64,000 nucleotides of DNA, from assembly GCA_050084515.1 (NCBI GenBank), contig CM114271.1, forward strand, positions 34,100,001 through 34,164,000. Direction: 5' to 3'. Source of the stretch: Blasia pusilla. Its lineage: Eukaryota. The notes beneath the pieces are model-generated. The model was given only the letters and a program-made list of their open reading frames with translations, was not told the DNA's origin and did not search any database. Shown one piece after another: positions 18,101 to 55,947 of the stretch (positions within the stretch are counted from its first letter, which is position 1; the number at the start of each line of letters is the position of its first letter). The translations under genes were made by a program, and so were the position numbers.

Positions 18101-18619
18101 TCCCACTCATGCCTGCTCAGACGATGTCTCCTCCGATAGACAGGTGTCTCATCACTAAGGTCGATGGAGAACTGCATAGTCTTGTACTTGGCCAGATCCT
18201 TCATTGAAAACGCAAATACATTCTCATACTTCAGCAGCAATCTTGTGACCTGATCCCTTTGCTTCTTGTTGAGATGGTTTCCCATGATGAATGAGTAGTT
18301 AGCAACACATGGAATGGAGCTAGAAAGTGTGCCAAAAGAACCAGATGTACTAGCTTTTCCACTATCCAACTGCGCATATTCGTGGAGGAATGTAGTCGCC
18401 TCTCCAAAACCTGACGTAACTCCAGGTCTGATCTGATCCATGAATGAGGTATTTTCAGAGGATTCAGATGTATGAGAGGCCATTGGAATCAAATTACACG
18501 GTACTCCTCCCCCCCCAAATAGTCGGAATGAAGTGCAAAGTGTTGAAGATGGGAAGATGTACTTGATCGGGGTGCCATGTAATAGCATTGCTGCAACTGA
18601 ATGCGGATTGACCCAACGC

Positions 18620-19348
18620 TGGCTGTGTGTACATTTGAGATAGTACACAGGTCACCAAAAGCCATGTGAGAGAGTTCAGATCCATAACTCTCCGCAATAG
18701 AATAGAGCATTGCGCTCTAATCTAGTCACTTTGGTGTGACAAGTCATGCCGATTTTGAACCCCATAGCCCTCTCTCTCTCTCGCACCGTCCAACCAGGGC
18801 GCAGGGTTTATGGTCGCAAGGTTACGACAGGCACTACTTAATAATGAGTACAGTCTCTCTCTCTCTCTCTTTAGGGCTTGGTTCATCCCAAGTACCTGTA
18901 GAATGGTGATAGACTAGGCCTGGCCCATCTCCTTGAAAGGCACGGGCTCCTGGAAATGAAACTAGAGTGGTCAAGCACCTCTTGGTTCACCTATTACGTT
19001 CGTCGGAAACCATGGAGTCTTCCCTTGCCACGTAACTAGTTGGCAAGAACTTTGGTCATCCAAGATGTGAGAAACCTAGAGCATAGGGTCTCTAATCTTT
19101 TTTTCAGAGCCAACACAACAGAGTGGTCCAGAAGTTAGCAAACGGTGCGCATAAGAACCACATTGCGCCGCATCAGGTAGGACTCTAGGAGAGGTGCCTC
19201 GAGAAAATGTTGGACCAGCATGTAATGCTCTTGCACTTTCTCTCTCTGATTATCCTGAAAAGGAGTGTTCTGAATTCTACAAAAAAGAGTGGGAGAAAGG
19301 GCTTGGGTCCAAGTGATTACTCGCACCATGTCCACGAAAAGGCTGGAC
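18620..19348 (-). pseudogene. C-terminal half of a C5-cytosine methyltransferase domain in family-2 pol
   Basis: Hand translation of the minus strand: SLFVDMVRVI...RIQNTPF (motif VI, ENV-like), DAAQCGSYAHRL.NFWT (VIII), TLVSFPGARAFQGDGPGLV, ERAMGFKIGMT (IX), RRVMDLNSLTWLL (X). These are colinear with the DNMT at 38.9-39.8 kb. Confidence 0.8.
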
Positions 19349-19882
19349 TCTCAACTTATCGTCTTCAAGCGATAGTTCTTCTTCAACCTCTTGAAGAACC
19401 CTTGGCACTCCTGACCGATGGTGGGGCACTAGTACCTCCACTCAGTACTCCCAGGTTCCAAGAACCCCCAATCCTTCTCTGAATCATTTTCAATCGGGTG
19501 GGGACATAGTAGGAGCACTACTTCCATGACAATGGGTGATAACTGAGACCAATATTGTCTCTTGAATCTCAGCAACATGGTCCTTCCTAAACTCATGGTT
19601 CGCAATGGGTGGTCCCTCAAGTCTTCCAAACAATACCAAGCCAAGAAGGGTGTAAAAATTTGGCGTTGACTGCATATCACACCCTCTCAAACCTGAATAA
19701 AGTCCTCCAACTCAATGGTGCCCACTTCGAGTATATGTGGGCCCTTCATGGCCCCATGGTCCAAATACCAAATCAATGGAGCTTGCAAAGTAGCGGCTGA
19801 ATCGTGTTTGGAACATCCTTTTCCTCCTCTTCATCAACCTTCGGAAGTGGAAAAGGTAGCCGATACCTCAATCCACTCCTTG
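19349..19882 (-). mobile_element. gag fragment of the family-1 element embedded in family-2 pol
   Basis: RSGLRYRLPFPLPKVDEEE, CDMQ, LEGPPIANHEFRKDHVAEI and FFKRLKK match 36062-36670 closely at DNA level. Confidence 0.8.
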
Positions 19883-22800
19883 AGCCTCTGTAGAACTTCT
19901 GGTCCATGCTTAATTTCAGTAGGAATAGCCTCCAAGCTTTCAGCAGCTTGTGCATAGGCTATATATCTCTTCTTCATCATCCTCCATCCACTCACTCATG
20001 GCTAGCTTGCCGGATGTAGGAAATGGTGTTTACCTCTTTGAACATACAGTGGCGAGCCATAAGATTATGGTTCCCATGTAAATCCAGAGGAATGTATACG
20101 CGGCTGTGGCCATCAGTTTCCCAATCCACTCGATAGTATGCGTGCTCGAACCAATTGTCGATTGTGAAGCTTGGTGGAAACAAGGCCTCTTGCCCAATGA
20201 GCACATCATATCTGCTGGAATTGGTGACTAAGAATCTGACCTGTAGATGAAGCTCCTGATCTGTAACTTCACTGAAGGTAAGTGAAATCAGATCATAGCT
20301 CTCCCCAAGTACCTCCTCCACATTCCCACTAGTGGTTCGAATCTGCCACATGGATTTCCGCAGTTTGGAGTCTAGCATGCCCATCTTCTTGGCAAATTGT
20401 AATCCCAAAATCATTGGTTGGGCACCTGTATCAAAGAGTACTACTCTAGGTGTATGTCCTCCCACCTTATTTTTTGACTTGGTGTTGTCAACCGTGGCAA
20501 CTCCGGTGGCAATGGAGGTTCTCTCGATCACTAGGTACTACCTTTGGAAATGTGCGAGAAACCTTGTGGAGAGAATAGCTATCCACAACACCTTTGCTGA
20601 GTAGCAAGTTCAAAATTGAAGTAGTCTTTGACCCTCTCTGATCTTTAGATGTAGGTATAGCTGTAGAGGAGCCATCTAGTTAAGCGATGTTGCTAGAACG
20701 AATGATCAAATTGCGAACGCCCTCCGCGATATGCAAACCAGAAGAGTGTCCCTTTAGAATGTGGGACGGGACCTCCATGACATGTAAAAAAGGGGATGGT
20801 AGAGGGCCTGATGTAGTATTCAGGGTGTCCTCTAGTATCGTGATACACCTCCCTGATGCTTAGCTTCAGGTCCTCGAAGCTGAATAGCGGTGTAATCAAG
20901 AGCTTATGCGCCACTTCGTGAACTGGAAGTTGGCACTTCACAAACTGATCATTGGACAGATCAAACTTCTCGTGATGTAAGTATACTCCTGAAACAAAAT
21001 AATTTGATGTCCCAACAGCTTGTGGTGTAGAAGCTGTCTCCTCGCCAACAAGGTGCTCTCCTCCTCCAAAGTGAGGGGACGGAAAGATTGTGGCATGACT
21101 GCCCTAGCCCCTCTAGCCCTGGTCATGGGACCTGTACCAGATGCAAGATAATCAGTCTGAACCACTCTCCTGGTGGTAGAAACCTTGCGTGTCACACTAG
21201 CTTATTGCGCGACGAAGTAGGATGGACAAAATGATGTATCAAATTCTGCGGTGAGACCAGATTGGTTCGCTGGGGAGAGAACATACCCTCCCATCATGGC
21301 CTCATGTGGGAGGTCATAGAACGACCTTGGAAATCCTTTCCCTAATCCTGAACCTTTTACAGCTTGAGCATGACTAGCTGTTGGGGTAGACTTGCCCTTC
21401 AATGTGGCAAGTTGGGCTCGCAAAGCCTCTACAACGCCTTCAGCGTTTGAACCTTGTGCTTGGGGCACCGACTTCTTGGCAGCCTGGTACTCTTGTTCTT
21501 AGAATCCTTGCTGGAGCTACGCCTTAAAGGAAATCCCTGAGTTGAAGGCTGAGCTGGCTTGCCTTTGGGTAGAGAGGCAACGGCTGGTTGTTGCAGATTT
21601 TGTCACGGTTTCCGGAGTCGCTTGCATTCCGGAAATTTGGCAAAACAAACAGCCTCTCGATAAGCCTATTTCCCACAATAATCACAGAAGAGATCCTTGG
21701 AAGGGATGTTGCATTCACGAGCCTTGTGATCAGGGTTACCACAATAGTTGCAAGAAGGTAGGATGGGTGCCAAAAAGTGCACCCGTTTGCTACGAGAAGA
21801 GAAATGAGAAGATCTGGTCAGAGTAGCGGATGGTGGCAGAGGTCTAGCACGGGCTGTAGGCCTCATATTGATGGCCTCATAGTGAGCATGGGCCAACTCC
21901 AACTTCTCAGAGATGTTGTACACATCCAACAAGGCGTAGGAGTTGCCAAATTCTGCGAAAACTCGTTGCAAAACTTGCGCATGGAGTGCCGGAGTACTCT
22001 CCATCGCATGAAGATACCGATGGGCAGCCTCCAGGTTTGTGATGCTCTGAGTGTCCTCCTTAAGCTTGAGGAGCCTCCTGTATAGCATCTTGAGGGTCTC
22101 TTACTTCTGCTGAGAGAAGATGGCGAGCTGGAAAATGTTTTCAGAGCTCTTAACCGGGAATTCTAGCTCAAGAACCCGGAAGAATTCTCCCACTGGATCA
22201 GCAAGGGCTAGTGAATTAATGGTAGTGGAAATGTAGGCCGTAGCAGCGGCGAGTTGTTGTGGAGTCAGCGCCACTGAGATAGGTACCGGATCTAGATTAT
22301 TTGCCTCGGTACCATGATGCGCAAAGGTCTTCCGTTGAACTTCTCAATTTTCCCAGAGGAGTTGCTGACGTCCATGGTGAATGAATGTGATGGAGTGGCG
22401 GCTCGCAATGGGCCAATGTCACATACACAGCCGATGTGAAACCCAGTCCGGCAGCTGAAGTATCCCACTGATTCAGTCCACCAAATGGACTCTGATATAT
22501 TCTAGATGATGTGTATCCGGAACCTGAACTTCTGATAGGGCTTGTACTAGGTGACGGCAGCGATGAAGGCCCTTGATTGTATCACCATGAATGCCGTGAG
22601 CTCATAGAAATTGGTACAAATGGCCGTGGATCACTTCGCAGCCGATAGTGTGGCTCTGGTTGGTCACTAGATCTCTCATCTCCAGAGGACATGTTGATGT
22701 TCCATGCCCCAAGAGCATGGTAGAAAAAGCCGAAAGTAGCACGGAGCCCTTGCCAAGAACTTTCTAACGTAGCCTACTTAACTACACACAACTTGCACTC

Positions 22801-33747: not shown

Positions 33748-34131
33748 TTTTTTCAAATAAGGGTATTTCAAATCATATTCTCAATAATTGTGTCCAACTC
33801 ACTTTACAAAACCTACTTATGTTACAAAGTCCAAATTCATGGACATATCCTATTCCATGCGAGGAAAAATATAATAATTTTCTTTGTTGCCCCATTCAAG
33901 TTTAGGTTTGAAGATCTATGGTTTATAGTCTAAGGTGATAAACGTATTTTGCATCTCTAGTCCAAAAGTACTTGAATTTACCACATTTAGCAAAATTGGT
34001 GATTTTCTTTGAGCCAAAAAATCCAACAGTAATTGGGAATATTTCGAGATCAAATTTCCATCGTGGAAATTTTGAGATTTTCTTCATTTCAAAAATTCCG
34101 AATATAATATTTATATTATAATTCCTTATAT

Positions 34132-34499
34132 TGTCATGACCATACGGATTATGTCGTAGAGTACAGTGTGTTAGTAGAGGCCATTCCTTATGTAGGACCG
34201 TAGTGGCTTGGTAGAGATGCGGTTTCATACATAGGGTTGGGGGTTACTCAATTGGGGGTGACTTTCCCAATAGGGCCCGCTCTTAGGTTGGAGGATATAA
34301 GGTGGAGTGCACTCAAAGAACAGTCAGTTCTTTGAGTTGAGCCTGTTGCGTTGGGAGTTAGCCTTGGTAGTGAGTAGAGCTCTTGGCTATAGTGTTTCCC
34401 GCAAGCTTCGACTTAGATTCTCCCATCATGGAGTGGGTTTGGCTCGATTGTATGTGATTCTATACGTGTTTTATGACAGTAGGTCTTTCACGGATTTCA
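34132..34499 (+). repeat. Repeat A1 (368 bp; distal U3-R-U5 part of the LTR)
   Basis: Matches 43477-43844 with 9 substitutions by manual alignment. Contains TATAA at 34296 and Inr-like TCAGT at 34324-34328. Confidence 0.95.
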
Positions 34500-34509
34500 C
34501 TCAAAGAAC
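34499..34509 (+). promoter_or_regulatory. Self-priming primer-binding site (Tf1-like)
   Basis: ACTCAAAGAAC at the LTR end is the exact complement of GTTCTTTGAGT (34327-34337) at the predicted transcript 5' end. There is no TGG tRNA-type PBS. Confidence 0.75.
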
Positions 34510-35961
34510 AGGAGTAGATCGATGGTAGTTTCGATTGTGGTTCAATAGGATCTGGTTAGGGCTGATTGTGTACTCAGCCGTGGATGTTCGTGGCTTATGG
34601 CCTATGTTGGAGGTATGAATCTGGTGCGTGGTAGGGTTGCGAAAGAAGCGCCTTGCTGAGAGCTTTCCAACGCGCTTTAGATCGCCGGATTTTGTCAAGG
34701 GAGTTGGAAGTTATCAAGGATTGAAGATTCTGGTTCGTGTTCGACGGTTTTTTGATGTGGAGAGCTTGGAGTGCGGAAGCTCTGTTGAAGTTCATCCAGA
34801 TCGGGTGAGAGGTTCCTATTGCTACTTGTATTGTAATCTCATGTGAAGCTATCTGCTTGAGTGTGTGGAGTGTTGCGGATTTCTGCGTGCATGAAACTTG
34901 GCGGAAGCGCTGTCGGATTTGCGATTCTGGAGGTGTATGGACAGCAAGTTTGTCTGTGTTGTAGCTGTTTTTTGTGGAGAGATAGCTATGGTGGTCAATT
35001 GAATTCTGGTCAAAACAGATTTGATTTTGGTCACGGATTTGTGAAGTAATTGGTGATCGAAATTTTGCGGACTAGCTCAAGGTCCGGCTATGGTGGACAG
35101 CGGATCGGAGGGGCTGGTTGGTTAGTGACTCGTTCATTGTTGGAGACTCCTATCCCGTTGGGGGCGCGCTGGTTGGGCCTCTCTCCATAGCGAAAATGGC
35201 GAAGCGTGGCGATAGGGGCATGTCTCGAGCATTTCTCGGCGTTTTGAGGCTTCGAGGCAACTTGTGGTAACTCGGGGCGAGTGGGCGTGAGAGTCGGAGT
35301 AAGGAGCAAGGAGCAAGCAAGCAAGCTTGCTTGCTTGGGCGTGAGGCAATTTTTGCAGGATTTGTGATTTGAGTGTTGCATAACTGGTCACCTATCTTTG
35401 GGCTATTCTTCTTGGAGGACGCTTAGCTGCTGAGTTCTTAACTATGCCAGTGTACACACTGTTGTATCTCATTTGGTGCTGTTCGGAGATGTGTTAGGCG
35501 CTTTATGCATCTCAGGTTTTTGGTTGATGTACCTCTAGCACATAGTACAGTGTAGCCTCTCCATGCAGGTGATATTTTCAGGTGTTGCGAGTTCGACTAG
35601 CACGTTATCGACCCGCGGCGGAGTAGCTATTGCGTTAGAATTGTGTGGTGGGTTTTGTGGATTCAAGGGGCACCACGTTTGGTGGATTATGTTACCTTGA
35701 TTTCCATTTGCGATTGGAGGGTTGTCGTTGGACTTCCTGTGTTTGGATCCCCTCCATCGTTGCTTCTTGCTTGCGCGCCCATTGTTAGGGTTGACGTTGA
35801 TTTCCAAAGTAGTCTTACTCTTGTGTGCTATCGATAGTGAGGTTGGAGTGATAACCAATAGACCGTGGGAGGCTTCTTGTGGTGATGAAAGTTAGTTTGC
35901 CTACACCCATAGCTAGTAGAGCTAGAATAGTATAGCGACATCGACGTCACTTGGTTACTTA

Positions 35962-37540
35962 ATGGTGGTAATTTGGTGGTGGTGCGGCATCGGCGTTGGT
36001 CATCACGGAGTTGTCGGGTGGTCTGGTTGGGGACCGTGGTGCGGACAGTGGTGGTTTCACACGGAGTGGATTTAGGTATCGGCTACCTTTTCCACTTCCG
36101 ACGGTTGATGAAGAGGAGGACGAGGGTGTTCCAAACACCGAGTCTTCTACATTGTTATCGAGTGTTGGAGCTCCATTGATTTGGGACATGGACGGGATAT
36201 ATGGGGCCATGAAGGGCCCACGAAGATACTCGGGTGCAGTGGGCACCATTGAGTTGGAGGACTTCATGCACGAGTTTGATACGTGGTGTGATATGCAAAT
36301 GTTGGGGAACGCCACGTTGTTTACACCCTTCTTGGCTTGGAAGGGGTTGTTTCAGCACTTGGAAGGACCACCCATGGATGATAACCATGAGTTTAGGAAG
36401 GACCATGTTGCTGAGATTGAGGCGTGGAGACAATATTGGTCTCCAGGCTATGTGTCTATCACCCATGGTGGTATTGGTAGTAGTGCTCCTACTATGCCAG
36501 CCAGCCCGATGTTGAGTGGTACGAGTACGAGCCGGAGTGGGGGTACCAGTGGAGGTACCCATGGAGGTACTAGTGGGGGTACTAGTGCCCCACCATCGTT
36601 CAGCCCGGTGGCAGAGTTCTTCAAGAGGTTGAAGAAAACTATCAGGGAGTGAAGACAGAAAAGTTGAGGAGTCTTTAGGAATTTGAGCGAAAGACTGGTG
36701 AGAGTCTTCGTGAGGCATACACTCGTATGCAACGTTTGATTTTAGTTACCCAGAGTGTGACTGAGGCTCAGGCAATCCTGTTTTGGTATGGGATCTTGGA
36801 CAAAGATTTGCGCCGTAGGGTACGTGATGTTACTCTTATGAGTGATGATTCACCCACATTGACCCATGTGTTTGCTCTATTTGAGAAGATTGAGCTTAAC
36901 ATGGTGAAGGAGAGAATGGTGACATCCGGCATTCAGTAGGGATACAACTACTACTTCTCGTGTTCAACAGCCCACCTCACAGTCTCGTAATAGTGGTGGT
37001 GGTAGTAGTAGTGGGAGTCGTGGGGGGTACACACGACCTCAGTCAGGTCCAAGAGGGACACTTGCGCAGAGACCATTGCCTTCATTTGCTGCCCGCAGAA
37101 GGGCGATCATGTTGGACATGTGGAGGTGATCATGTTAGGAAGTTTTGTCCCCAAGAGGATGGGAGACGGACTTTGGAGGATGGGCCTCAGTTGGCCCCAA
37201 CTCAGTGTGATCATTGCGGGAGACCAGGTCATCCTCGAGAGCGTTGCTTTGATCTTCATCCAGAGTTGAGATCAGGCCGCGGCCGTGGTGGAGTAGCTCC
37301 GAGAGGCCGAGGTGGTAAAGGTGGTAGGGGTGGTAGAGGTGGACCGGTGGTTGAGAGCCTCACGGTGGCTACCCCTACCACTACGACAGAGTCAGCTATG
37401 GTCGCAGGATTGAGTGATTGGAGCGGAAGTTGGCTACTATGGTCGGGTATCCAACATAGATCAGGTTCAGGAGCAAGGGCTTTCACCTCTTATGGAGGGG
37501 ATGATCTCTCTTATATGGCGAGTGCAAAAGACAAAGGTTG
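35962..37540 (+). pseudogene. gag (capsid-like region, CCHC zinc knuckles, RGG tract), frameshifted
   Basis: PRRYSGAVGTIELEDFMHEFDTWC, CWTCGGDHVRKFC, CDHCGRPGHPRERC, GRGGKGGRGGRGG. Confidence 0.8.
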
Positions 37541-38010
37541 AGGCATCACTGCGATTCTGAGAGGAGCCACTCAAGCGTCGAGCCACGTGGTGCTCTTGTG
37601 GAGTTGGACCCACAGAGGGGTGAGGCGGGAGGCGAGGCTAGGCTTCCCAGTCATTCTTGTTGTCCGAGGTGCTTAGGACTCCATCCATGGTTCCCCACGC
37701 ACCCTATTGAGCCGCAGTGGGGACCGAGGCATCTACATCGCATGTAGTAGACACGGATGCAAAGATCCATCGGCAAGATTATGTGCGGATGGCAACTTCA
37801 GCGTTGGGATCCCCATTATTTTCGCCACGGAGTCGATGGCTTTAGGAGTTGACTTAGCTCTCAGTATTTCAGCTAGCACCACATTGTATGAACGTGGGGT
37901 GTTATTCGCTACACGTGCTCGAGGTGGATGAGGGTGTTGCGGTGGAGCGACCCTCTATGTCAGGTGTAGTATTGAGTACCAGTGCTACTTGACAGGCAAC
38001 AGCGGCGAAG

Positions 38011-38520
38011 ATGGATGCATTACCAGCCCGGCCAGCCATTGATCGTGAGAGGCTTACACTTGGTGTATGTATGTTGGACAAATGGAGTGGGATATTCCGA
38101 TTTGTGAGTCCTACAGGACAGGTGTATAGACCAGATAGAGTCTTGTTAGACTCTGGTGCCCAACCTTTGATGTTGGGAAAGGCGGCATGTATTGGTTTGG
38201 GTATTTGGAGGTCAGAGCTTGAGCCTTGCCCATTCCAGATTCAAACATTACTTGGAGGAGCCAATGATAGATCTCAATTCATGACATGGGAGAAGTTTTC
38301 TGTACAGTTGAGACCAGATCATGCGACTAATAGCTCCCGGTTGGGAGTATCTTCGGTAGTCACATCAGCCGAGTCGTATGATGTACTAGTTGGAGGAGCA
38401 GTATTGTACCCGATGGGTTTTCATATGGATTACTGGACTGAGACAGCGTCTTATAGACCTGGTTGGCAGTCCGGGGATGGACGTATGAGCCAAGTTCCTG
38501 TGAGATTTATTTATGGGGCT
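38011..38520 (+). pseudogene. Retroviral-type aspartic protease domain
   Basis: RVLLDSGAQPLMLG ... YDVLVG (D-S-G active site and D-x-L-x-G motif). Confidence 0.8.
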
Positions 38521-38874
38521 CAACCAGGAGGGTCTTCCCCAAGAGTGTTAGCATCTGTGGCTGGTTTTAGTGGAGTAGTCACTTGGCCAGGAGACTTTTT
38601 GGAGGGTAATGTTTCTGCTATGGATTCTCCTACGCATGAGGAGGTAAAGGAGGTCCCTATTTTTGCAGCCGTGGCATCCTCATCGTTGGATGTGCCACTT
38701 TGGAGTTCAGGCGGTGCACTACGGCAGGAGGCTGATCGCCTAGTGCAGAAGGCTTGGTGTGAGGCTGTTATACCTCACGAGGAAGAGGAGGCCCCACGGC
38801 GGACTCCAACTTCTGGTCCAGTTGGGTTATCCCCTTTGGATACTACACCCATTCTATGGCAGTATCCGCTGGAG

Positions 38875-39830
38875 GGCATTTGTGTGTTAGATCTCTTTGG
38901 TGGGATTAGCACTGGTTTGGCTGCAGTGTTGGAGGCCGATATTCCTGTGCGGAGATACGTGTATGTGGAGCGAGATGAGACGTCCCAGAGAGTCTCATCC
39001 CGACATATTGGTCAGTTGATGCGGAGATATCCTGAGTTGTTGCCGCCATCAGCTATTCGTGGGTACCAAAGTGCTTTGCCATCACACATTGCATTTTTTG
39101 GGGGCGCAGGACCTTGAGAGGGTTGGTCTGTGGATTTGGTGATTGTTGGATGGCCATGTCAGGATCATACACGTGCAGGTCGTGGTGAGGGATTACACGA
39201 CCCTAGGTCTCGATTGTTTTGGGAGATGTTACGGATGTTACGACATCTTCAGGTTCATTAGGCACGTGCTCCAGCTTACATTCTGGAGAATGTTCCATTG
39301 TTGGGTGACACTCGGACCCGGATGATGGCGAGTGTTCATGAGGTGCGGTCTTGGATTGGACCAGCGGTGTTGTTGGATGCAGCGCGAGTTGGCTCGCGTG
39401 CACATCGTCCACGCTTGTGGTGGACAAACTTGTTGCCTAGGGAGGTTCTACGTCGACCATATGATGCAGTGCAGCGGGATCCTTGCCTTACCGTGGATAG
39501 TATCTTGGATACTGGGCGACTTTCTCAAGTGGTGAGGGTTATTGATTAGTCACCCATGGCAGTGGTGAACCGTGTGGGCCAGCCTAGGATGGCACTACCC
39601 ACATTTGTGAGTTTTCCCTCGTCACATGCCTACAGGGAAGGTGGTCCGGGGCTTGTATGGGATTCTCATGCGGCGATTGGTGGAGCCTAACGCTGATGAG
39701 AAAGAGCGTGCGATGGGATTTGCTACTGGTGTGACAGTGGTTGCTTCTATTTCTGAGGCTTCACGACGTCATGTGTTGGGTCAGGCCATGGACCTGAATT
39801 GTTTGACTTGGATTTTGAGTCTTGGTATGG
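38875..39830 (+). pseudogene. C5-cytosine DNA methyltransferase (DNMT) domain inside pol
   Basis: Motif I VLDLFGGISTG (38884), II YVYVERDE, IV DLVIVGWPCQD (PCQ 39154-39162), VI ILENVP (ENV 39286-39294), VIII AHRPRLWWTN, IX ERAMGF and X LGQAMDLN, in canonical order. Disrupted by stops (39115, 39259, ~39547) and frameshifts. Confidence 0.92.
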
Positions 39831-40209
39831 CCGAGCAACGTCGACTTCGGACTACGTCTGTGGGTCTTCCACCCCTTGTAATGAGCTCGATGGCTATTGG
39901 GACGGTAGAGGCATCGGCTGGGGGCGAGGAGAATAGTATTTTGCATCCTTGGAGTAAATGGGATGTAATGGCTGGGCATGTGGAGTTGGTTGCTCATGTT
40001 GGTGGAGGAGTTATTTGCTCAGATGATGGTGTAGCTAAGGGTGTACCATCTTGTGAGGGGGTTATGAGTGACCAATGGCATCATCCTCTCCCTCTAGTGT
40101 GCCAGTGGAGGAGACTTGGGAGCCATTACTTGGGCCCAAGCTTACGGGAGGTGAGAAACGACGCTTGACATAGTTCCTACGTGCTTATAGGAGTTGTTTT
40201 GCCTTTTGC

Positions 40210-41560
40210 ATGAAGGAGTTGGGTTCTCTGGTTGGACCCGGTATACGGATTGATTTGGCTAGTGATACGCCAATCTTCCGTCGTCCCTACCGATATAGTG
40301 ATATGGAGAGGGACCTGATTCATAGTAGGACGTTGGACCTTTTGGAGGCTGGATTAGTGGAGTTGTCGCATGAAGAGTATGCATCGCCCATGTATCATGT
40401 CATGCTCGCTAAAAAGGATATGCATGGCAACTACACGGATAGGCGGATGTGTGGAGATTATCGTCCTATCAATCGGCAAACCAAGGCCGATAGGTATGCC
40501 ATGCCTACACCGAGGAGATCTTTGATGTGGTGGGACAGCAAAGATTTTCAGTACTTTGGATCTTCAGCAGGATATCATCAATTGCCGATTTGGGAGAGTG
40601 ACAAGGCCAAGACAGCATTTTGGGGTGTCAACTCTCATGGCAAGGATTGTTTGTACCAGTGGAAATTCTTACCCTTTGGGTTGAAGAATGCATCTTCCGA
40701 GTTTCAGAGAGTGATGGACAGGATCCTAGGAGGGTTGGATTTTGTTCGGTGTTACATTGATGATATCTTGGTGTTCAGTAACACGGTGGAGGAGCATCAG
40801 ATACATTTGCAGATGGTGTTTGAGCGGTTGAAAGCTCATGGTCTACGTTTGCATCCAGGAAAGTGTAAGTTCTTCCATGAGGATGTTGAGCACTTGGGTC
40901 ATGTGATCTATCCAGGTGGTTTGGGAGTTCAGCAAGCAAAGGTGGAGGCTATTGCACTTATTCCGCATCCGATAGATGTGAGTAGAGTTTGGGCATTCAT
41001 GGGATTGGCGAACTACTATCGGAGGTATGTGAAGGGATTTAGTGCTATGGCAAAGCCTTTGAACCAATTGCTGAAATCAGATCAAGAGTGGCACTGGGGA
41101 GATGATCAAGAGAGAGCTTTTGTGGAGCTTAAGGCCCAATTGGTGGCGGCGCCTATCTTGAGGAGACCTATCGAGGCGCCCATTTAGTTACACACTGATT
41201 GGACTACGTTGGGACTTGGAGCGGTGTTGACACAACATGATGATGAGCACATGGAGTTTGTGGTGGCCTATGCAAGTTGTTCGAATAATGCAGCGGAGTC
41301 GCGCTATAGTTCATATGACGGAGAGTGCTTGGCAGTAGTGTGGGCTGTGGCACACTTTAGGTGTTACTTGTTTGGCACATAGTTTACCCTTGTTACTGAT
41401 CACCAGCTGCTCAAGTGGTTGATGGAGTCTGACAAGCTTACAGGGGAAGCTTGCACGGTGGCTCTCTTATCTTACAGAGTATGACTTCCGGGTGGTACAT
41501 AGACCTGGAGTTGCCAACCTTGATGCTGATGGGTTGAGTAGGAACCCATGTACTAGCCAA
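40210..41560 (+). pseudogene. Reverse transcriptase + RNase H (Ty3 type)
   Basis: RMCGDYRPIN, LPFGLKNA, CYIDDILVFS (YIDD 40753-40764), HTDWTTLGLGAVL, TDHQLLKWL, NLDADGLSR. Confidence 0.95.
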
Positions 41561-41899
41561 GAGGATACAACTGGGGCTAGATGGCATGGCAAGGTTGATG
41601 AGGAGATGGTGCCAGGTTGGTATGCATCCGCCTTTTTATGTTGGTTAGGGGTGGACTCTAGTATGGAGGATCACATGATATCTTACTCTAGTCAGAGGGT
41701 AGATGGCCACCCTTCAAATCCTAAGGTTGGAGATGGTGGTAGGGATCAGCGTGATATTCATGATGATGCGTTGGTGTTGGAGTTCCTACGGACCAGTAGG
41801 GTGCCATGCATAGTGAGTGCCAAGGAGCGAGACCGTGTTCTTCAACGTGCTAAGAGGTATCGATTGGAGGGAACACATATTCTCCGCGTGTGGGAGGAT

Positions 41900-43030
41900 G
41901 GTAGAGTACGAGTAGTGCCACATTTGACTCAGAGAGAGCGCATTGTGCGACATGCCCATGAGGAGTTGGGACATTTTGGGGTAAAGCGTATGTATAGCTT
42001 ACTCCTTGGCCAGTATTGGTGGCGTGGCATGCATTCTCAGGTGCAGCAGTTGATGTCACGTTATATGGTTTGTGATCGGGTGAGGGCATCATTCAATGCC
42101 CCTACACCACAATTACACCCCTCGCCTATTATGGGGTTGAGTTATCGTTGGAGTGTGGACTTTGCGGGACCGTTACCGTTGACTGCACGACATCATCGAT
42201 ATGTGTTGGTGATGGTGGAGCACTTCTCCAAGTAGATTGAGTTGGTGGCATTACCGGACAAGGCAAGTGAGGGAACGGCGTATGCGTTTCTTGATAGAGT
42301 ACTTAGTCATTTTGGTGCACCAGCTGAAGTGTTGACCGACCAGGGTACAGAGTTTCAGGGTGAGTTTCATGTCTTGTGTAACAAGACGTTCATTGATCAT
42401 CGGACCACATCTCGAGATCATCCAGAGGCAGATGGTTTGGCTGAGCGTGTGGTTTAGACGGTGAAGAGGGCATTGCGCAAGTATGGCCTATAGAAGGGGC
42501 ATCTTGGAGACTAGGATATTCAGTTGCCATGGTTAGTCATGGGGTATAGGTTTAGTCGCCAAGCATCCTTGGCTTCCTTCTCACCTTATTTTCTGTTATA
42601 CGGCCGAGATCCAGACTTGCCAGCAGCAATTTGTCGGGAGTCTAGTGAGGTGGTGATCCTTGATGACCCAGAGATGTGGATGAGGATGTATTCTCAGCGG
42701 GCGGAGCTCTTTCGGAGAGTTATGCCAACAGCCTTTGAGAATCTTGCCATTGCTCAACACAGGGATACGTTGCGATATGCAACCATTCGGGGTGGAGATT
42801 ATCGACCATCGATTCGTAGGTTCCATGTGGGGGACTATGTCTATTTGCAGCAAATTGCACCGACAACATTGGATGTGACGGCAGGCCGCACTATTTTACG
42901 AGTGTGCAAGGTGTTAGCTTCTGGAGTTCTCATGTTGGAGGGTCGTGATGGAGTTGTTTGGAAGGACCATGTGCGTAATTGTGCGTCATGTCATCTTCCA
43001 AATGTGGATGGTATTGTTGACCCAAGCTTA
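41900..43030 (+). pseudogene. DDE integrase (HHCC zinc finger + rve core)
   Basis: HEELGHFG...YWW...CDR, WSVDFAGPLP (~42150), VLTDQGTEFQG (~42330), HPEADGLAER (~42420), SPYFLLYGR. Confidence 0.92.
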
Positions 43031-43054
43031 GTCATGATACGTGCTAGCTTGAGG

Positions 43055-43195
43055 TGCATGTTGTGTGGGTCTACTGGTAACGCAGCCCGTATGTTGGTGT
43101 GTGATCGGTGTTCTAGGGGTTGGCACATGATGTGTTTGACTCCACGTATGGATGTTGTTCCTACTGGAAGGTGGGTTTTTCCTCGATGTACTTAG
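43055..43195 (+). pseudogene. PHD finger at the integrase C-terminus
   Basis: CMLC...MLVCDRCSRGWHMMCLTP...GRWVFPRC is a C4HC3 pattern with one Cys mutated to Phe. Confidence 0.9.
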
Positions 43196-43358
43196 GAGAG
43201 GTAGATGACTTGATCTTTGCATGATATGGATTACAGATGTGCGACTAACAATGGGGCAACCTAGCACCCGACCTTCTGATTCGGGCACCCAAGAAGGTGT
43301 ATAGCATGTAGTAGATGTATAGGGCTACCTAGGAGTTAGAGAGACCTAACCGCCAGTT

Positions 43359-43369
43359 AGGGGGGCGAG
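43359..43369 (+). promoter_or_regulatory. Polypurine tract
   Basis: AGGGGGGCGAG immediately before B1 (TGTGG at 43371). Confidence 0.8.
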
Positions 43370-43370
43370 T

Positions 43371-43844
43371 TGTGGTACACTTGTGTTTGTGGATGTTCTC
43401 GTCTATGTTATGTATGTATGTGAGTATGGTATGTCAACGATGTATGTTGTATGACGATGTGGATTCGCACGACAGCTGTCATGACCATACGGATTATGTC
43501 GTAGAGTATAGTGTGCTAGTAGAGGCCATTCCTTATGTAGGACCGTAGTGGCTTGGTAGAGATGCGGTTTCATACATATGGTTGGGGGTTACTCAGTTGG
43601 GGGTGACTTTCCCAATAGGGCCCGCTCTTAGGTTGGAGGATATAAGGTGGAGGGCACTCAAAGAACAGTCAGTTCTTTGAGTTGAGCCTGTTGCGTTGGG
43701 AGTTAGCCTTGGTAGTGAGTAGAGCTCTTGGCTATGGTGTTTCCCGCAAGCTTCGACATAGATTCTCCCATCGTGGAGTGGGTTTGGCTCGATTGTATGT
43801 GATTCTATACGTGTTTTATGATAGTAGGTCTTTCACGGATTTCA
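43371..43844 (+). repeat. Complete LTR unit B1-GC-A2 (474 bp, TG...CA)
   Basis: Begins right after the PPT and ends at the same CA that precedes the PBS in A1. Contains the internal palindrome GACAGCTGTC at 43471-43480. Confidence 0.9.
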
Positions 43845-43846
43845 GT

Positions 43847-43950
43847 TGTGGTACACTTGTGTTTGTGGATGCTCTCGTCTATGTTATGTATGTATATGAG
43901 TATGGTATGTCAGCGATGTATGTTGTATGACGATGTGGATTCGCACGACA
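43847..43950 (+). repeat. Repeat B2 (104 bp), right terminus
   Basis: Matches B1 43371-43474 with 3 substitutions. Joined to A2 by CA-GT-TG. Confidence 0.95.
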
Positions 43951-46900
43951 ATACTTTTTCTTATTTGAAAACAATATTCATAACATATGGCTTTCATGGA
44001 GATAAACTTGTATGAATTGGTCTTATTTTTTGCATTAGTAATTTCATTTCATTAATAAAAATTTATAATATATTAAATAAGGAAATATTTTTATTTTCCT
44101 TAAGATTATGTATATGATTGTAGAAAATAGGCATAAACCTGAAAATGTAAATTTTTTACTTAGATTTCTTATTTCTATTTTTTAATTCTAGTAAAATCAA
44201 AGGCATTGATGTCCCGTTTACATATTAATTTTTTAGCATGGTTGATTTTTTAAATTATAAAAAAAATCAATCAATATTTCTAGAATTTTAAGAAATAACT
44301 CCAAATCTAGGAAATAAAAATATATCTTACTATTCCTATATGAAATTTTACTTCTTTTCATAACTATTCCCTCTTCTTTTAATATTAAAATAAATGAGAC
44401 TTGTGAATGTTTCATATATTTTGACCTTATCATTTGCAACTTAGTAAGTAATAATGGAAAAACCATCTCTCAAAATAATTTTTGAAATAAGTACAAAAAT
44501 GCAATATGGGGAGTTGGAGAAGATCCTATATATTAGCAAAAACAATTATTAGAATATTTTGAAAGAAATAATTTACAAAATTAAATTGGAAATAATCTCT
44601 ATTATGGTGACTAAATTTTGAGAGAAGCTTAGGGTAAGATTGGAGTGGCAAGGATGATTAATGGAAATTTCATGCAGATACTTGGTCAAAGTCTATGACC
44701 ACAAAAAATTTCATGTAAGACCTTACCCATTGTCATTATCATAGAAAGTAGGTTGTGTTTAATATGGATTAGCTTATTCATGTTTCTTTATGAATTTGGA
44801 AGACTTGGAAATAATTTCATCAACTATTTTCCAAAGTTTTAATGATATGCAAATCATTGATCTAAAATAAGAAGGGATGATATAGCTATAATACATATCG
44901 GTGAACAACCCACACCTTGCACAAGGATAAATCATTCTTCACAAAAATTAAAAAAGAAAATATCCTTTCATTCAAGTAATGATAATATAGATTCTTCTAT
45001 TGCATCCTCTTATTCCATCTTTTTACATGTAGAGAGGTTCTTCATATACATATTAAAAATTGTGGAAATTTACTTCCCGTTGGACCAAAATTCAATCTTT
45101 ACGGCCCCGACGATAATTCCCTTTTTTTCCCTGTCCATCTGGTCTATCCACATGTCCTCTATACTTGTTCACTAATTACTTCCTCTCCCACCCCTCTCAA
45201 GGAACCCCATACTGGTTTTACGTAATAACAAAAATTGAATTATAATTATTCTTTTCCTAAAAACTTTCATTCATCAAAGATTTATTTTGGTTATCATGTT
45301 TTCATGCAAGTGGATGAGCGTGACATATTAACCCACATACAAAGGTCTAGAGAGGAAAAAGTAATAACTAGATTGGAGATACATAAGTGCCATGAGGAGA
45401 TGTTAAACCTTCTCTTGTTTGCTTCGTAGTTGTTCTTAAGTGCTCCACAACACAACTAGAATTGATGAATTATCATCGCCTCCCACCTAGTTTAAGAGAT
45501 GCATCTCAAGTCTTTTCTGATAGTCCATATTCTTAAAATATATTGCGTTCCACCAATTTAATTTGGATCTTTATGTCGTAATCAACCGTGTTGCTTGCAC
45601 CTTTCAGAGCGTCGGGAATGGGGGTCGGAAAAGTTTAGGGTGAGGAAAAAATTACGGGTCATATATAAACTCTTGGATTTCCCAGTGGAAATTAAAAATA
45701 CGCCGACCGGCTTATTAACCGGCGGCTCTAAAATAACCAGTGAATCCACGTCAGTGAATAATACTGAATATGCGCACTGCAGTTGCCCTCCAAGGACTCG
45801 GGAGAATCGAAGGTCCGGAAACGCGGTCCTCCGACGTTCATCGAACGGTCCAGATTACGCGATGGGCGGACGCTCTGGTCTATGAATCTAGGAAGAAAAG
45901 AGGTAGTAAGACTCAAGCGTTCGAAAACTGCTACCGAGCAGCCGCCGGCTTCCCATTGGTAGCTAGGCCTGTTAAAGTTAGCGTGTACGGTAGAAGCGTC
46001 CACGTGGATTACCACACGGCGCAGGAACGACTGTCGCCCGCCCACGCACGCAGTTACCGGTCCGCGCAATCACGACCGCGAGTCCGAGGCCACGAAGAAG
46101 CTGGTGGTCCCGGTCCGGCCTCCTGCCACATAGTCATGACTCCGCTTGCCACGTCCCGACTCCCGGTCCCTCGAGCCTTCACAGCCGTAGGCGTCCCCGT
46201 CAAGTTGTCTAGTACGCAGAGTTGTCCGCCGAAATTGAGGCCGCGCTCTGCCGCCATTCCCCATCAACTGGATCGGAATCCACCTCCACGCAACAACAAC
46301 GATTTCGAGAACCGGCTTTGTTTTGATTCATTGTTTGGCGTGTCTGTGAATCTCTCTCTCTCTCTATCTCGCTCTGGGAGACCGATTCTGGTGAGGCGGG
46401 AGGAGTTTCAAGAGGAAAGGAGAGAGCCAGAGAGAGAGAGAGCTATACAACGATTGAAAAGTGTGTAAGCCGCCGGAGATCGGTTGCTTGATTGCGTGTA
46501 GGATCGTCGATTCGGCGGCGGGCTGCTGCGGTTGATGATCTTTTCTGCGTCTGTGGCCTGCGGTGGTGGGATTCAAGCGTGAACGGTTGGAATCCCGAAA
46601 GGTGAGGGGGGGAGACGAGCAGCGGCGGAAGTGGTGGTAGAACTGAGAGAGGGAGCGGGAAGAAAACAATCTCAGATTTGTCTGGTTCAACACAGTCGGG
46701 ATTTGGTCAATTCGGAAAAGTTGCCCACACACGCTCCCTTGGAGTAGATTGTCCGCCCCCTCCACGGTGCCTTCCCACTCACGGTGGTCCACCGATAGAC
46801 TGGTCCCCTGCGTCCTCTCGTTGGAGAAGTCTTTAACTCAGAGGGCATGTAGATAGGCGATTAATTGTACTGTCTCCCTCCAGACACAATCAGACGGAGA

Positions 46901-51649: not shown

Positions 51650-54600
51650 TTGGAGAAAAGCGTATTATCGGCGACCCGGCTAGAGCGGTCGTGGCTATGG
51701 ACACTCCTCTCCATAGAAATTTCACGAATGGGAGCATCCTCTGCATGGACATGTCTCTCAATCAAATCACTAGGCCAAGTGATGGCACTGCTAAATGCTG
51801 CTAAGGTTGCCATCTCTCCTGGACGTCGCTCGATCACTGCACATGTGAATCGAACGGGTAATGATCTAAGGCGCCCATCTCCTGACTCCCATCCTGGTCT
51901 GTCGAACGCTCACTTCTCCCTGTAATCTAGGGAAAACCCCATCGGATATAACATTGCTCCACCAACCAAGACGTCGTAGGACTCTGCATCAGTCACTATC
52001 GCCTTGGCTCGCACCACAGACTCATCTGTAGGATGTCCTAGGCGAATCCTCACTACAACCTCCTGTCGGGTGATATACTGTGTGGTACTCGCTCCACCCA
52101 AGGATGTCTGTATCCGAAATGGACAATGCTCCACATCAACTCTTGTCAAGCCCAATCCTCTCCATGATGCTTTCCCCAACATCAGGGGTTGCGCTCCTGA
52201 ATCCAAAAAGACATGTTGCAGACTAAAAGCTCTATCTCCTAGACTCACAAACTGGAAGACCTCTCCCCAATTATCCAGCAACACAACACTAGGAGAAGCC
52301 ATGGCACGCTCTATCGCGGGTCTAGCGGGCATCTCCGCTATCCTACCAGCCGCAGCCTGCCATGAATCTGATGTGGACGGCCTGAGCATCCGCTCCAAGG
52401 GCAGGTCATTCACATCCTCTGCAATCACCTCTGAACGTGATGTAGGAACTCCAACTCCACACTCACATAGCATAGCGGCCAGCCAGAAAATCTATACAAG
52501 AGTATCTCCCAACATCATAACATTGGAAGCAGTAAACAACGGAGCACGATACACCATCATGGCCGCCCCCAACATCGTACTCGACATATCCTCCTCTTGA
52601 GCATCAGCAATAGGAGTCATCGCACTCGCTTCTCCCATCATCCTCCGTACCTGCACACCAATAACATCACCAACTCTCCAGGAACTCTCATCAGGACCCA
52701 TCGATGCGGTCCTCAAGTAGCCTCGTCTGTTTCCTGGCTTCCCCTCGCTGTGGATCCAACTCTACGGCTGCTCCACGCGTCATAATTGCGGCAGCCTCCA
52801 TCTGGGAAATCCCACACATCCAACCAAGATCCTCCACATCTCTGGCTGCTCCATATGATGTCGATGCCACGGATCCAGCATCGGCTAACCTCAATGCCAT
52901 AGCGGCAATCTGCTCTTGTAACTGCTGTATCTGAGCAGCCATCCCAGCCTCACGCTCGGCTGAGGTCTCTGTGGCACGGCCTTTTGGTATTCTCCTTGAG
53001 CTCGTGGTGCCACAATTGACCTATCTCGGAGTCCACGTTGTTGCACTGGTGGTGTTGCCATGCCTCAATCTCCTGGGCATATCTGTGGGAGAACTCATGG
53101 TAATCGTCCATGGGTGCCTCCTCTAAATGCTAGAACATACCGTTCCATGTTGTAAATGGGTTGAACTCTCTAGAGTTCCTAGCCCCTTGTGAGTCGCACC
53201 AACTCCTAAACTCCCCAATGAAGTCGTGTAGCTCTATAGTGCCTATAGCACCCGAAAACCTATGTGGTCCTCTACCCGGGTCGTCCATCTTGTATGCCCA
53301 ACTGGTAGGACCACTCAATGTGTACGGTGGATCACTAACACACTCCTCTACACGCTCCCCCTCATCAGAAGACGACATAGAAGGAGATCGAAGTGGTCTC
53401 TCACGTGGAGACCCTTGAAACCTCGCACCACTCCGAGTAAACCCTCTAGAGCTACTCTCAAGTCCACTACCTCGCCTCCCAAAATCCCGAAAGGATGCCG
53501 TGATGGCCCTCGTGCCCCTCTCACACGATCACTCTCAATCTCGCAAGTCATCCCTCAATCACTAAAACTAAACATGTGGCACTCAATGTACACTCTCTCA
53601 TTGAGACGTGTGTTGTGCGGCAACAAGCAGCGCAGTCCGGAAAATCAACTGATCTATCGTCTCATTGACAAACCATCCCCAACTCTGGACATCCCACACA
53701 AGTCTATGTCCCCTAAACCCATACATCATCGATGCTCTCAGCATCAACACAAAACCCAATATCCCAAATAACTTCCCAATATCCAAAAATCCCTCACACG
53801 TGCAGGGTAAGAGACCAAAATGGGTAACCTGACAATAAATGTCGATGCGCTCCCCGGCAACTGCAAATATCGACCCCAACTTGGTGGTGAAGAGAACTCC
53901 TCCAATCAGCAAGTTGTACTCCTCTCATACTGACGCCGCTCAAACCTCCTCAATATGCGATGCAGGTCCAGCCCTCCGGTGCGGCACTGGCGGCACGGAA
54001 AGGCTACAAACGGTACGACACTCGGGAATGGGATGCGGAACTTGGCAGCATACCCTCCTCAATCAGAAATTCACACGCTCTGCTCCTTAGTGAAGGAGCG
54101 GCTCCGCTCGGTTCGGCCACGAGCGGCACGACGCGGAAATTGGCGTCGCGTTGCGGCTACATGCGTCACGGCACGGTACTCGATCGTCGCAACATAGCAG
54201 CATGAAATAAAAACTCAAACACCATAACCTGAGGTCACGTGCCATCATTGGTTGATGACAAAACTGCGATGACGGTGGCAACCAAAACAAAGTACGTGAT
54301 GGTGGCGCAAGTCAGAGAATCAACAGTCATCGTGGAAGACCCTTCACTCCGTAATGGCGGCAATGCCAACCTAGGGTGGAAAACGGCCGAACGTGGCTCT
54401 AAGCAGCGCTAGGCGGCGGCGGCGGCCGACGGTGGATGGTGGACGATGACGGTTGATCATTGATGGTGATGTCGGACCATTGACAGTGACGGTTGACCAT
54501 CGATTATGATGGTTGATGGTGACTATGACGACGACGGCCGGCGGCGGCACGACAGCTGGTTTAGGGTTTGAACAATTTAACCCTAAAAATCGCCTAACAA

Positions 54601-55947
54601 TAGTAATTTTGCCAGATTGACCATAACTTTTTGCTCGCAACTCTAAATTGCACACCGTCTATTGCACACGCGTACAACTTCACGATCTACAACGACATCA
54701 AAAAATATTTTCACGGTTGACCATCGATTGTGATGGTTGATGGTGAATATGACGGCGACAGCCGAAGGCGGCGCGGCGGCTGGTTTAGGGTTTGAACAAT
54801 TTAACCCTAAAAATCGCCTAACAATGGCAATTTTGCAAGATTGACCATAAGTTTTTGCTCGCAACTCTAAATTTCACACCATCTATTGCACATGTGTACA
54901 ACTTCACGATCTACGACGACATCAAAAAATATTTTGAATCGAACATTCCAATAAAAAGTGAGGGGGATTGTTGTACAGCCCAATGTCTCTTTCTCCTACA
55001 CAAAATTCGGCAGCGCTTCCGCGCTGATTTCTCCCAAAAAAATGTAAAACCTATGAGAACACAAATCAACATGCTACATGGTACTCCCGAGAGCACTCGC
55101 ATGGAGCAACCCGCCCCCATACTCAATTCCTATCAAAAATTGGGCAGCGCTTCCGCGTGCCACTCTCCCGTACAAAAAATCAGCAAAGAAAAACAGCAAA
55201 CTCGCACGACTCTTGCTCCGGTGAGCACTCCCATGAGCCATAAAGCGGGGAACACTGTCCCCCAACCTGCACCGAACATCGAGCAACGAGCGAGCTCCCC
55301 CATGAAGCTCTCTCACGCAGTCATTCTCTCTTTGTAAAATAAGATCCAATCTTGCTCACAACATCATACTTCTCACATGTGTGCACTCTCACATGTCTCT
55401 CTTAATGTCAAACCAAACCCACTCTCTTGATGAAAGGCTTGGGTTACACTCACAAGGAAAGGGACCATAGCTCTGCCGCCTCGTGCCAAGAGGTTCAACA
55501 AAGAGAGAATGAGCTCTCAAGCTCTCTCTCCTTGAGGTATACCCCTCCCCTCTCCCAAGCTCTCTCCATGGTAACCTATGCTCCTAAGTCACCTTCTTGG
55601 CTCTTGACTTGATGTAGGAGGTCAAAGACCACTTACCAAAACTAGAAAGTCGACCATATACTCAAAATGGTACTTGCCTAAAATAGTAGGTTCCTCAATA
55701 TGGCTCTAAATGAGCAGAAACGAAGGGGAAACATGCTCTCTCAGGTTTCCCGAGGCCTTAGTAGGTCATCCTCAACCTCCTGAGTTTGTCTTCCACTACT
55801 CGTGAAGGCGCTCTACTTGATCTCATCGATCTATCCTAAAAGACGTGATATCTAATCAATCTTCATGAGAGCTCTACATGCAAGTAAGCACCTTCTCCAC
55901 TTAAAACCCCATTTTCTCGATAAATTAAAAGGCTTTCATAGATGACA
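51650..55947 (-). mobile_element. 5' half of a third Ty3-type relative (LTR A, leader, internally deleted gag, protease), truncated just before the DNMT position
   Basis: GPHRFSGAIGTIELHDFIGEFRSWCD, VELDPQRGEA, HVFLDSGAQPLMLGKA, AESYDVLVGGAMLYPMGF and AAFSSAITWPSDL are all homologous to family 1. The LTR-like segment 55333-55947 starts TGTCA and ends TTACA on the minus strand, and shares GAGTGGGTTTGG with repeat A. Confidence 0.8.
54489..54935. repeat. Two tandem ~224-bp units containing TTTAGGG...CCCTAAA
   Basis: Units start ACGGTTGACCATCGATT at 54489 and 54713 and are highly similar throughout. Confidence 0.9.

Follow-up and report, generated by a model that had tools for sequence, protein, structure and literature searches.

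Since 2018 it has been asked what benefit a DNA methyltransferase brings to the transposon that encodes it, the one streptophyte example being algal and its enzyme having given no signal in yeast. The question arises again in a 64,000-nucleotide stretch of DNA (the window; positions 34,100,001 to 34,164,000 of contig CM114271.1, Blasia pusilla assembly GCA_050084515.1), where a first-pass annotation had placed a cytosine DNA methyltransferase (DNMT) in the pol region of a retrotransposon, between protease (PR) and reverse transcriptase (RT), at window positions 38875-39830. These coordinates are accurate: the domain occupies positions 38878-39820 of a 9.8-kb Ty3/gypsy-like retrotransposon, here called element A, which extends from 34132 to 43950 on the plus strand. 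Sequence comparison indicates, with a probability of about 0.88, that the domain is a DNMT3-type C5 methyltransferase situated inside the pol of a degraded Ty3/gypsy-type "Gypsy-DNMT3" retrotransposon. Element A itself is a fossil, and its value lies in the family to which it points.

The methyltransferase domain and its setting

Motif I (DLFGGIS, 38890-38910), motif IV (GWPCQ, 39148-39162), motif VI (LENV, 39283-39294), motif VIII (SRAHRPRLWW, 39394-39423), motif IX (ERAMGF, 39704-39721) and motif X (LGQAMD, 39776-39793) follow one another in the canonical, non-rearranged order. All the motifs reported in the first-pass annotation could thus be located, with PCQ and ENV preserved. The first part of the domain is in frame 1 and is continuous with the open reading frame (ORF) 37993-39117, which holds the protease motif LLDSGA, in agreement with the in-frame continuation that had been described.

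Searched with its stop codons read as X, the domain of element A matches PF00145 with an E value of 1.8e-9 and, in the PDB, the catalytic domain of DNMT3A with an E value of 2.6e-11. The best 29 of the 51 PDB matches are all DNMT3A, DNMT3B or DNMT3C, with weaker matches to M.HaeIII (0.004), DNMT2 (0.02) and DRM2 (0.5). When the stop-to-stop ORFs of the domain were scanned separately, none reached the Pfam threshold. A profile made from nine relatives matches DNMT3A at 1.9e-20, co-linearly in three blocks (motif I, motifs IV-VIII and motifs IX-X), followed by M.HhaI at 4e-8 and DNMT2 at about 1e-6; it found no DNMT1 match in the PDB at 1e-3. The matches of this profile to DRM are partial (3e-16 and 4e-13), being limited to one part, in line with the rearranged order of that enzyme. 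The matches thus justify the DNMT3 type, which had been noted at first pass for motifs I, IX and X. A Dcm-type or bacterial origin was considered and rejected, DNMT3A being far ahead of M.HaeIII and M.HhaI in the PDB searches, and a DRM type was rejected since the motif order is not rearranged.

Element A has the layout A - leader - gag(CCHC) - PR - DNMT3 - RT - RNaseH - IN - PHD - G-run - B - A - B, where A and B are repeats and IN is the integrase. Its parts, in window coordinates, are as follows.

34132-34499, plus strand: terminal repeat A1, 368 nt, starting with TGTCATG, with a TATAAG box near 34295; 97.6% identical to 43477-43844
36188-37650, plus strand: gag region, with frameshifts and stops; tblastn match to residues 1-474 of the Marchantia protein P0004 at 37-42% identity
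37206-37247, plus strand: CCHC knuckle CDHCGRPGHPRERC within gag, read as a motif
37993-38870, plus strand: aspartic protease region and linker, in frame 1, with LLDSGA at 38143-38160
38878-39820, plus strand: predicted DNMT3-type C5 cytosine methyltransferase domain, motifs I-X in order
40117-41187, plus strand: reverse transcriptase (PF00078, E 1.8e-24), with YIDD at 40753-40764 and in-frame TAG at 40171 and 41185
41190-41650, plus strand: RNase H region, with a frameshift and stops; tblastn matches to P0006 and P0036, in which the corresponding parts have PF17917/PF17919
41927-42499, plus strand: integrase, consisting of an H2C2 zinc domain (PF17921, E 4.5e-13) and then a D,D,E core (VDFAG, TDQG, GLAE), with stops at 42233, 42455 and 42491
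43055-43192, plus strand: PHD finger (PF00628, E 2e-8) at the C-terminal end of pol
43340-43367, plus strand: purine-rich stretch, resembling a polypurine tract and ending in GGGGGG, directly before B1
43368-43474, plus strand: repeat B1, 107 nt, ending in CACGACA and joined to A2 by "gc" (10-bp palindrome GACAGCTGTC)
43477-43844, plus strand: repeat A2, 97.6% identical to A1
43844-43950, plus strand: repeat B2, 97% identical to B1, forming the right end of element A

The order PR-RT-RNaseH-IN with a DDE integrase, together with the CCHC knuckle in gag, is that of Ty3/gypsy elements; RVT_1 and Integrase_H2C2 were recognized by Pfam, and RNase H and the integrase core by homology. The protease of element A has no match of its own in the Pfam scan. 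It is homologous to the protease of element B, a second copy in the window that is described below and that matches PF13975/PF13650, and to the ORF containing PR and DNMT in the relative L043. The best PDB matches of the PHD finger are to KMT2C, CHD4, DPF2/3, ATXR5, KDM5A/B, PHF21A, UHRF1 and AIRE. Most of these PHD fingers read the unmodified tail of histone H3.

The family: frames, hosts, decay and transcription

To judge from the reading frames of relatives, DNMT is part of pol and shares one frame with PR and RT. Both an open PR-DNMT frame and an open DNMT-RT frame were found. In raw DNA, L043 has an uninterrupted ORF of 728 amino acids comprising PR and DNMT, and L054 has one of 847 amino acids comprising DNMT, RVT_1 and RNase H, with the rest of pol lying beyond three in-frame stops only. 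The relative P0096, encoded on a contig of 6.8 kb, is a protein of 2188 amino acids in which zf-CCHC is followed by DNMT, RT, RNase H and IN. Proteins named in NCBI as those of Marchantia and Sphagnum share the architecture of element A. In each of the 24 long representatives that were scanned, DNMT lies inside pol or a polyprotein that contains pol, and is never a separate gene. Its position within pol varies. It follows RNase H and precedes IN in 21 of the 24, with the PHD finger usually terminal; it precedes RT, as in element A, in P0096 and P0110, and it precedes PR in P0116.

Searches with the domain of element A gave 25 longer protein relatives and 63 of similar length. The named relatives, at 61-78% identity, are from Marchantia polymorpha (many loci), Calypogeia fissa, Riccia sorocarpa and, within the same range, Sphagnum fallax, S. 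troendelagicum, S. tenellum and S. jensenii. A HMMER search of 1.84 billion representatives with the nine-sequence profile gave 15388 matches at E<=1e-3, 2830 at 1e-10 and 464 clusters at 1e-30; the best 150 matches all have E values below 1e-66, and many are situated in polyproteins of 1000-3456 amino acids. The named algal members, found by the profile of the relatives only and 34-41% identical to P0028 (the closest intact relative), are from Scenedesmus sp. (annotated "pol"), Cymbomonas tetramitiformis, Haematococcus lacustris and Mesostigma viride. No named vascular-plant match was found either with the domain of element A or with the profile. The catalytic motifs are kept in dozens of Marchantia polymorpha gene models. 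By these matches the family is abundant in land plants, namely bryophytes, and is also present in green algae. The extension of such elements to land plants that had been proposed at first pass is thus supported by the nearest named relatives, which are from Marchantia, Calypogeia, Riccia and Sphagnum, but it was overstated, since these bryophyte sequences were already public as dozens of unnamed hypothetical proteins. A protein-cluster lookup with P0004 returned a 57-member streptophyte DNMT cluster at 0.90 and viral methylase clusters at 0.89, which serve as leads only.

Trees were calculated for 196 domains with FastTree and for 52 domains with IQ-TREE, using animal DNMT3 and two bacterial-like rows as outsiders. 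The element A copy belongs to a 14-row clade, with support of 96 and 99 in the two trees, together with Marchantia, Calypogeia and Sphagnum troendelagicum. The rows nearest to it are P0028, P0029, P0039 and P0041. In the 52-row tree, the ten rows having the order RT-RNaseH-DNMT form one clade (support 99), and lineage A, to which element A belongs, forms another with its 46-50% relatives (support 99). Lineage B, that of element B, stands apart at the poorly supported base. The Marchantia domains are nearer in these trees (support 96 and 93) to the group of Sphagnum and element A than to the domains from Calypogeia, the other liverwort, a placement that could reflect old paralogous lineages or transfer between bryophytes.

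The dN/dS ratio between the domain of element A and related copies is 0.21-0.33 at dS of 0.58-0.75. For the 1068 pairs taken together, the median ratio is 0.56; it is 0.76 in the 19 closest pairs and 0.17 at dS above 1. The rise among the closest pairs and the low values among distant ones suggest purifying selection on active lines, followed by neutral decay after insertion.

The decay is evident in element A. Three stops interrupt the frame of the DNMT domain, at 39115 (TGA), 39259 (TAG) and 39547 (TAG). The frame shifts from 1 to 2 near 39650-39668 and returns to 1 between 40033 and 40117; a TAG at 40171 stands just before RT, and more stops and shifts are found through RT, RNase H and IN. 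These interruptions within the domain had been passed over at first pass, and the functional enzyme then envisaged cannot come from this copy. All 32 stops in the homology-guided frames (35900-43400) are TGA or TAG and none is TAA, although some of those in gag may be products of alignments extended in a wrong frame. Relative to other copies in one DNA run, element A has 110 G-to-A and 75 C-to-T changes, compared with 50 and 49 changes in the reverse directions. By these counts the excess reflects the deamination of cytosines, a form of decay that methylated DNA is expected to undergo. In lineage A (window 34001-44000; 48 loci) the coding strand is rich in G and T, with a GC skew of about +0.21 to +0.25 and an AT skew of about -0.15. 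Lineage B has no skew, but its CpG depletion is much stronger (observed/expected ratio, o/e, 0.32).

Transcription was examined in three stranded RNA-seq runs, which were picked by the organism label of the best DNA run and of which 6-12% each was read; no RNA run with the family is listed among the indexed sequencing runs. All three cover 30 of the 30 bins of element A, with a depth of 43-76 over the DNMT bins. In nearly all of the reads the first mate is on the minus strand, indicating sense RNA given the usual library type. In the best DNA run the summed word depth is 1e4-1e5 per bin, a quantity that is not a copy number. The RNA reads, unlike the DNA contigs compared with them, skip 41714-42723, 36268-42804 and 35339-35991 without GT..AG ends, the first skip having nine other letters in between. 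The skipped stretches probably represent transcribed deletion derivatives.

Several observations weigh against reading the domain as the methyltransferase of a Gypsy-DNMT3 element. The element A copy is dead and unable to make the enzyme: in addition to the three stops and the frameshift of the domain, its pol has at least 11 other in-frame stops and at least two other frameshifts. An ORF spanning the DNMT domain is present in only three of 80 metagenome loci, and at least one stop is found in the domain in 45 of the 47 lineage-A copies compared. The RNA reads are mostly 90-99% alike to element A and only about 1.5% of them reach 99% or more, showing that the RNA comes from other copies. The CpG o/e of element A is 0.66 and that of the window is 0.65, so that there is no special trace of self-methylation. 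No protein named as Klebsormidium appeared in any search, and kinship to the published element consequently rests on shared features and not on alignment; the trees were made without canonical plant DNMT3, DRM or Klebsormidium sequences. To our knowledge, enzymatic activity has been shown for no Gypsy-DNMT3. The published domain, that of KnitGypsy-Dnmt3 from Klebsormidium nitens, gave no methylation in yeast, a result that its authors call inconclusive (PMC5890265).

Possible roles of the enzyme and alternative explanations

In intact members of the family, DNMT would be made within Gag-Pol and would so travel with RT and IN. It would then methylate the newly made DNA of the element before or at integration, while the PHD finger on the integrase would steer or tether the integration complex to chromatin having unmodified histone H3 tails. 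Taken as a whole, this mechanism, the likeliest of those considered, is put forward tentatively, as a possible course of events that falls somewhat short of an even chance.

The domain might, on the other hand, no longer methylate DNA. It could be a module for binding DNA or S-adenosylmethionine, or for scaffolding, as DNMT3L is for DNMT3A, or it could methylate the RNA of the element. The inactivity of the K. nitens domain in yeast, inconclusive as it is, would fit such a role, and RNA methylation is raised in PMC5890265 for the LINE-borne DNMT of that study. Furthermore, in many lineages, including that of element B, the proline of the PC motif is replaced (GWECQ, GWDCS, GWSCE, GFECA) and ENT takes the place of ENV. 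However, in both liverworts and mosses lineage A has retained GWPCQ and ENV as well as the glycines of motif I and the RxR of motif VIII, and the cysteine of motif IV is kept in nine of nine aligned relatives. As far as the alignments tell, the residues needed for catalysis are kept in lineage A. A constraint on the whole domain is evident from the dN/dS of 0.2-0.3, though this would fit any function. A non-catalytic or RNA-directed role of this kind is considered unlikely.

Many algal-type members (among P0093-P0236) are without the PC proline and yet have the cysteine, a combination that is unusual among C5 methylases.

An active enzyme could also work in trans, its targets being the host genome or rival elements and not the complementary DNA in the particle; this would amount either to epigenetic manipulation or to self-limitation after integration. 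In favor of this, the best DNA run contains the family in great abundance, the family is transcribed, and the PHD finger suggests an interaction with chromatin; accidental action of a transposon-borne Dnmt3 on the host genome is discussed in PMC5890265. The location of DNMT inside pol or the polyprotein in all 24 long relatives nevertheless favors action alongside RT and IN, and a role in trans seems improbable.

Were the contig algal or a contaminant, there would be no extension to land plants. Some of the sequencing runs that contain the family are air metagenomes, and the family occurs in green algae as well. Yet the nearest named relatives are bryophytes, at 61-78% identity, compared with the 34-41% of the algal ones to P0028, and the clade of 14 rows that holds both element A and bryophytes has support of 96 and 99. 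Whatever the origin of the contig, the Marchantia and Sphagnum proteins named in NCBI carry the same architecture. An algal or contaminant source is very unlikely, and a bryophyte host is the likeliest.

That a host DNMT3 gene or pseudogene came to lie beside a retrotransposon by chance or by nested insertion, as the degraded copy and the mosaic of elements in the window might suggest, is refuted by the frame that DNMT shares with PR within the A..B-A-B boundaries and by the same order in uninterrupted ORFs of relatives and in element B.

Repeats, other copies and known systems

The classic layout of an internal region (int) between two long terminal repeats (LTRs), LTR-int-LTR, was not found in element A, which has A-int-B-A-B and a G-run that precedes B1 and not A2. 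The same A-int-B-A-B layout is present in four of the 12 related loci examined, namely L039, which belongs to lineage A, and three loci of lineage B (L054, L068 and L069), and its B..B part was seen at two other loci of the 12. The five full elements all start with TGTCATG; four end with CACGACA and L068 ends with CACAACA. Element A and the four others have the G-run before B1, and common to all five are two extra bases at the B1|A2 junction that produce a palindrome. TG..CA termini are found in five of five elements, and a 4-bp target duplication is clear in two (AAGG in L039 and GGTC in L054); element A matches at three of the four bases, and two of the five elements show none. From the termini and the target duplications, the agent of insertion would be a DDE integrase that uses a linear A...B unit.

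The order A-int-B-A-B is also a rotation of [B-A]-int-[B-A], that is, of a two-LTR circle in which the LTR is B+A. The rotated layout suggests a circular or concatemeric step, and the circular intermediate hinted at in the first-pass annotation is compatible with it. A rotated circle would fit the order of the repeats, the palindrome at the B|A junction and the position of the G-run ahead of B1, but it does not account for the occurrence of only one of the two possible rotations. A candidate primer-binding site starting with TGG is located 23 nt after A1, and no tRNA matched it. The 13-nt word ACTCAAAGAACAG is found twice, at 34311-34323, a short way downstream of the TATAAG box of repeat A, and at 34498-34510, where it spans the end of A1; the repetition may be due to chance or be a microhomology for strand transfer.

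Two other copies of the family are present in the window.

15392-22247, minus strand: element B, a deeply divergent and degraded DNMT-bearing gypsy copy with gag, PR, the C-terminal half of DNMT (19183-18712), RT-RNaseH, IN and PHD
51721-53294, minus strand: element C, a gag-PR fragment of lineage A that ends before DNMT; its PR is 46% identical to that of element A

No terminal repeats were found for element B. A gag-like fragment (19758-19369) occupies the place expected for the N-terminal half of its DNMT, and its relatives P0074, P0076, P0077 and L054 have GWECQ and ENT instead of PCQ and ENV. A Pfam scan of the 28 other window ORFs of at least 130 amino acids detected only PR, RT and RNase H of element B and no host gene, and tRNA and Rfam scans of the 64-kb window found nothing. 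A unit of 223 nt is tandemly duplicated at 54489-54935, with 92% identity.

The kind of element to which element A belongs is already known, as Gypsy-DNMT3 from Klebsormidium in 2018; its bryophyte members are new, although a prior mention is possible. A literature search found no description of a DNMT-bearing retrotransposon in a bryophyte, which is weak evidence since subscription journals lie mostly outside the search. A 2026 preprint (10.64898/2026.05.21.726589) speaks, in its available part, only of "streptophytes (Gypsy-DNMT3)", and Marchantia and Sphagnum are not listed in the available part of PMC12344493.

The published KnitGypsy-Dnmt3 (de Mendoza et al. 2018, PMC5890265) has a non-rearranged Dnmt3-type domain in a gypsy-type Pol ORF and combines DIRS-like repeats with gypsy domains. 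Element A resembles it in the Dnmt3 domain within the gypsy Pol ORF, in the key catalytic residues that are kept and in the A-coding-B-A-B repeats. Purifying selection is indicated for both, with a Ka/Ks below 0.2 reported for KnitGypsy-Dnmt3 compared with 0.21-0.33 for the domain of element A. The hosts differ, being a charophyte alga in the one case and a bryophyte-like land plant in the other. The species list of PMC5890265 includes Physcomitrella and Selaginella and neither Marchantia nor Sphagnum, and the capture is read as specific to the K. nitens lineage. The breadth of the family, which extends over bryophytes, Mesostigma and chlorophytes, argues for a capture that is older or more mobile than that.

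A broader history can be sketched, with some reserve. Near the base of the green plants, a gypsy lineage with a PHD finger might have captured the domain once, in ancient times, and a huge clade (464 clusters at E<=1e-30) with the three orders PR-DNMT-RT, RT-RNaseH-DNMT-IN and DNMT-PR-RT might have descended from it. Its members would replicate through the unusual A-int-B-A-B form, which resembles a rotated two-LTR circle, and yet be inserted by a DDE integrase, and would still be transcribed in living bryophytes, with relatives in Marchantia. This reconstruction is conceivable but more doubtful than not. If the family is abundant and transcribed in bryophytes, the question of what the element gains moves to land plants for which methyltransferase mutants, methylome data and good genetics are available, the transformable model Marchantia being among the hosts. 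The family bears as well on the age of the capture and on the origin of DIRS-like split repeats in an element having a DDE integrase.

The domains of the SymbioDIRS-Dnmt3 elements of Symbiodinium (PMC5890265) are the only ones shown to methylate CG in yeast, and these elements have two domain orders within the family. The bryophyte family is similar in having a Dnmt3-type domain in Pol, A-coding-B-A-B repeats and differing domain orders. It differs in its DDE integrase (H2C2 + rve), its TG..CA ends and the 4-bp target duplications that are clear in two of the five elements, in place of the tyrosine recombinase and DIRS-type RT of SymbioDIRS-Dnmt3.

Among solved structures the catalytic domain of animal DNMT3A/B/C is the best relative, with a co-linear motif order. 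The element has neither PWWP nor ADD, its identity to the animal enzymes is low and its branch is long. The PHD finger of element A is at the far end of pol, and not beside the catalytic domain. Chromoviruses are Ty3/gypsy elements with a chromodomain at the C terminus of the integrase. Element A is similar to them in bearing a histone-reading module on its integrase, this module being a PHD finger (PF00628), a predicted reader, where the chromoviruses have the chromodomain.

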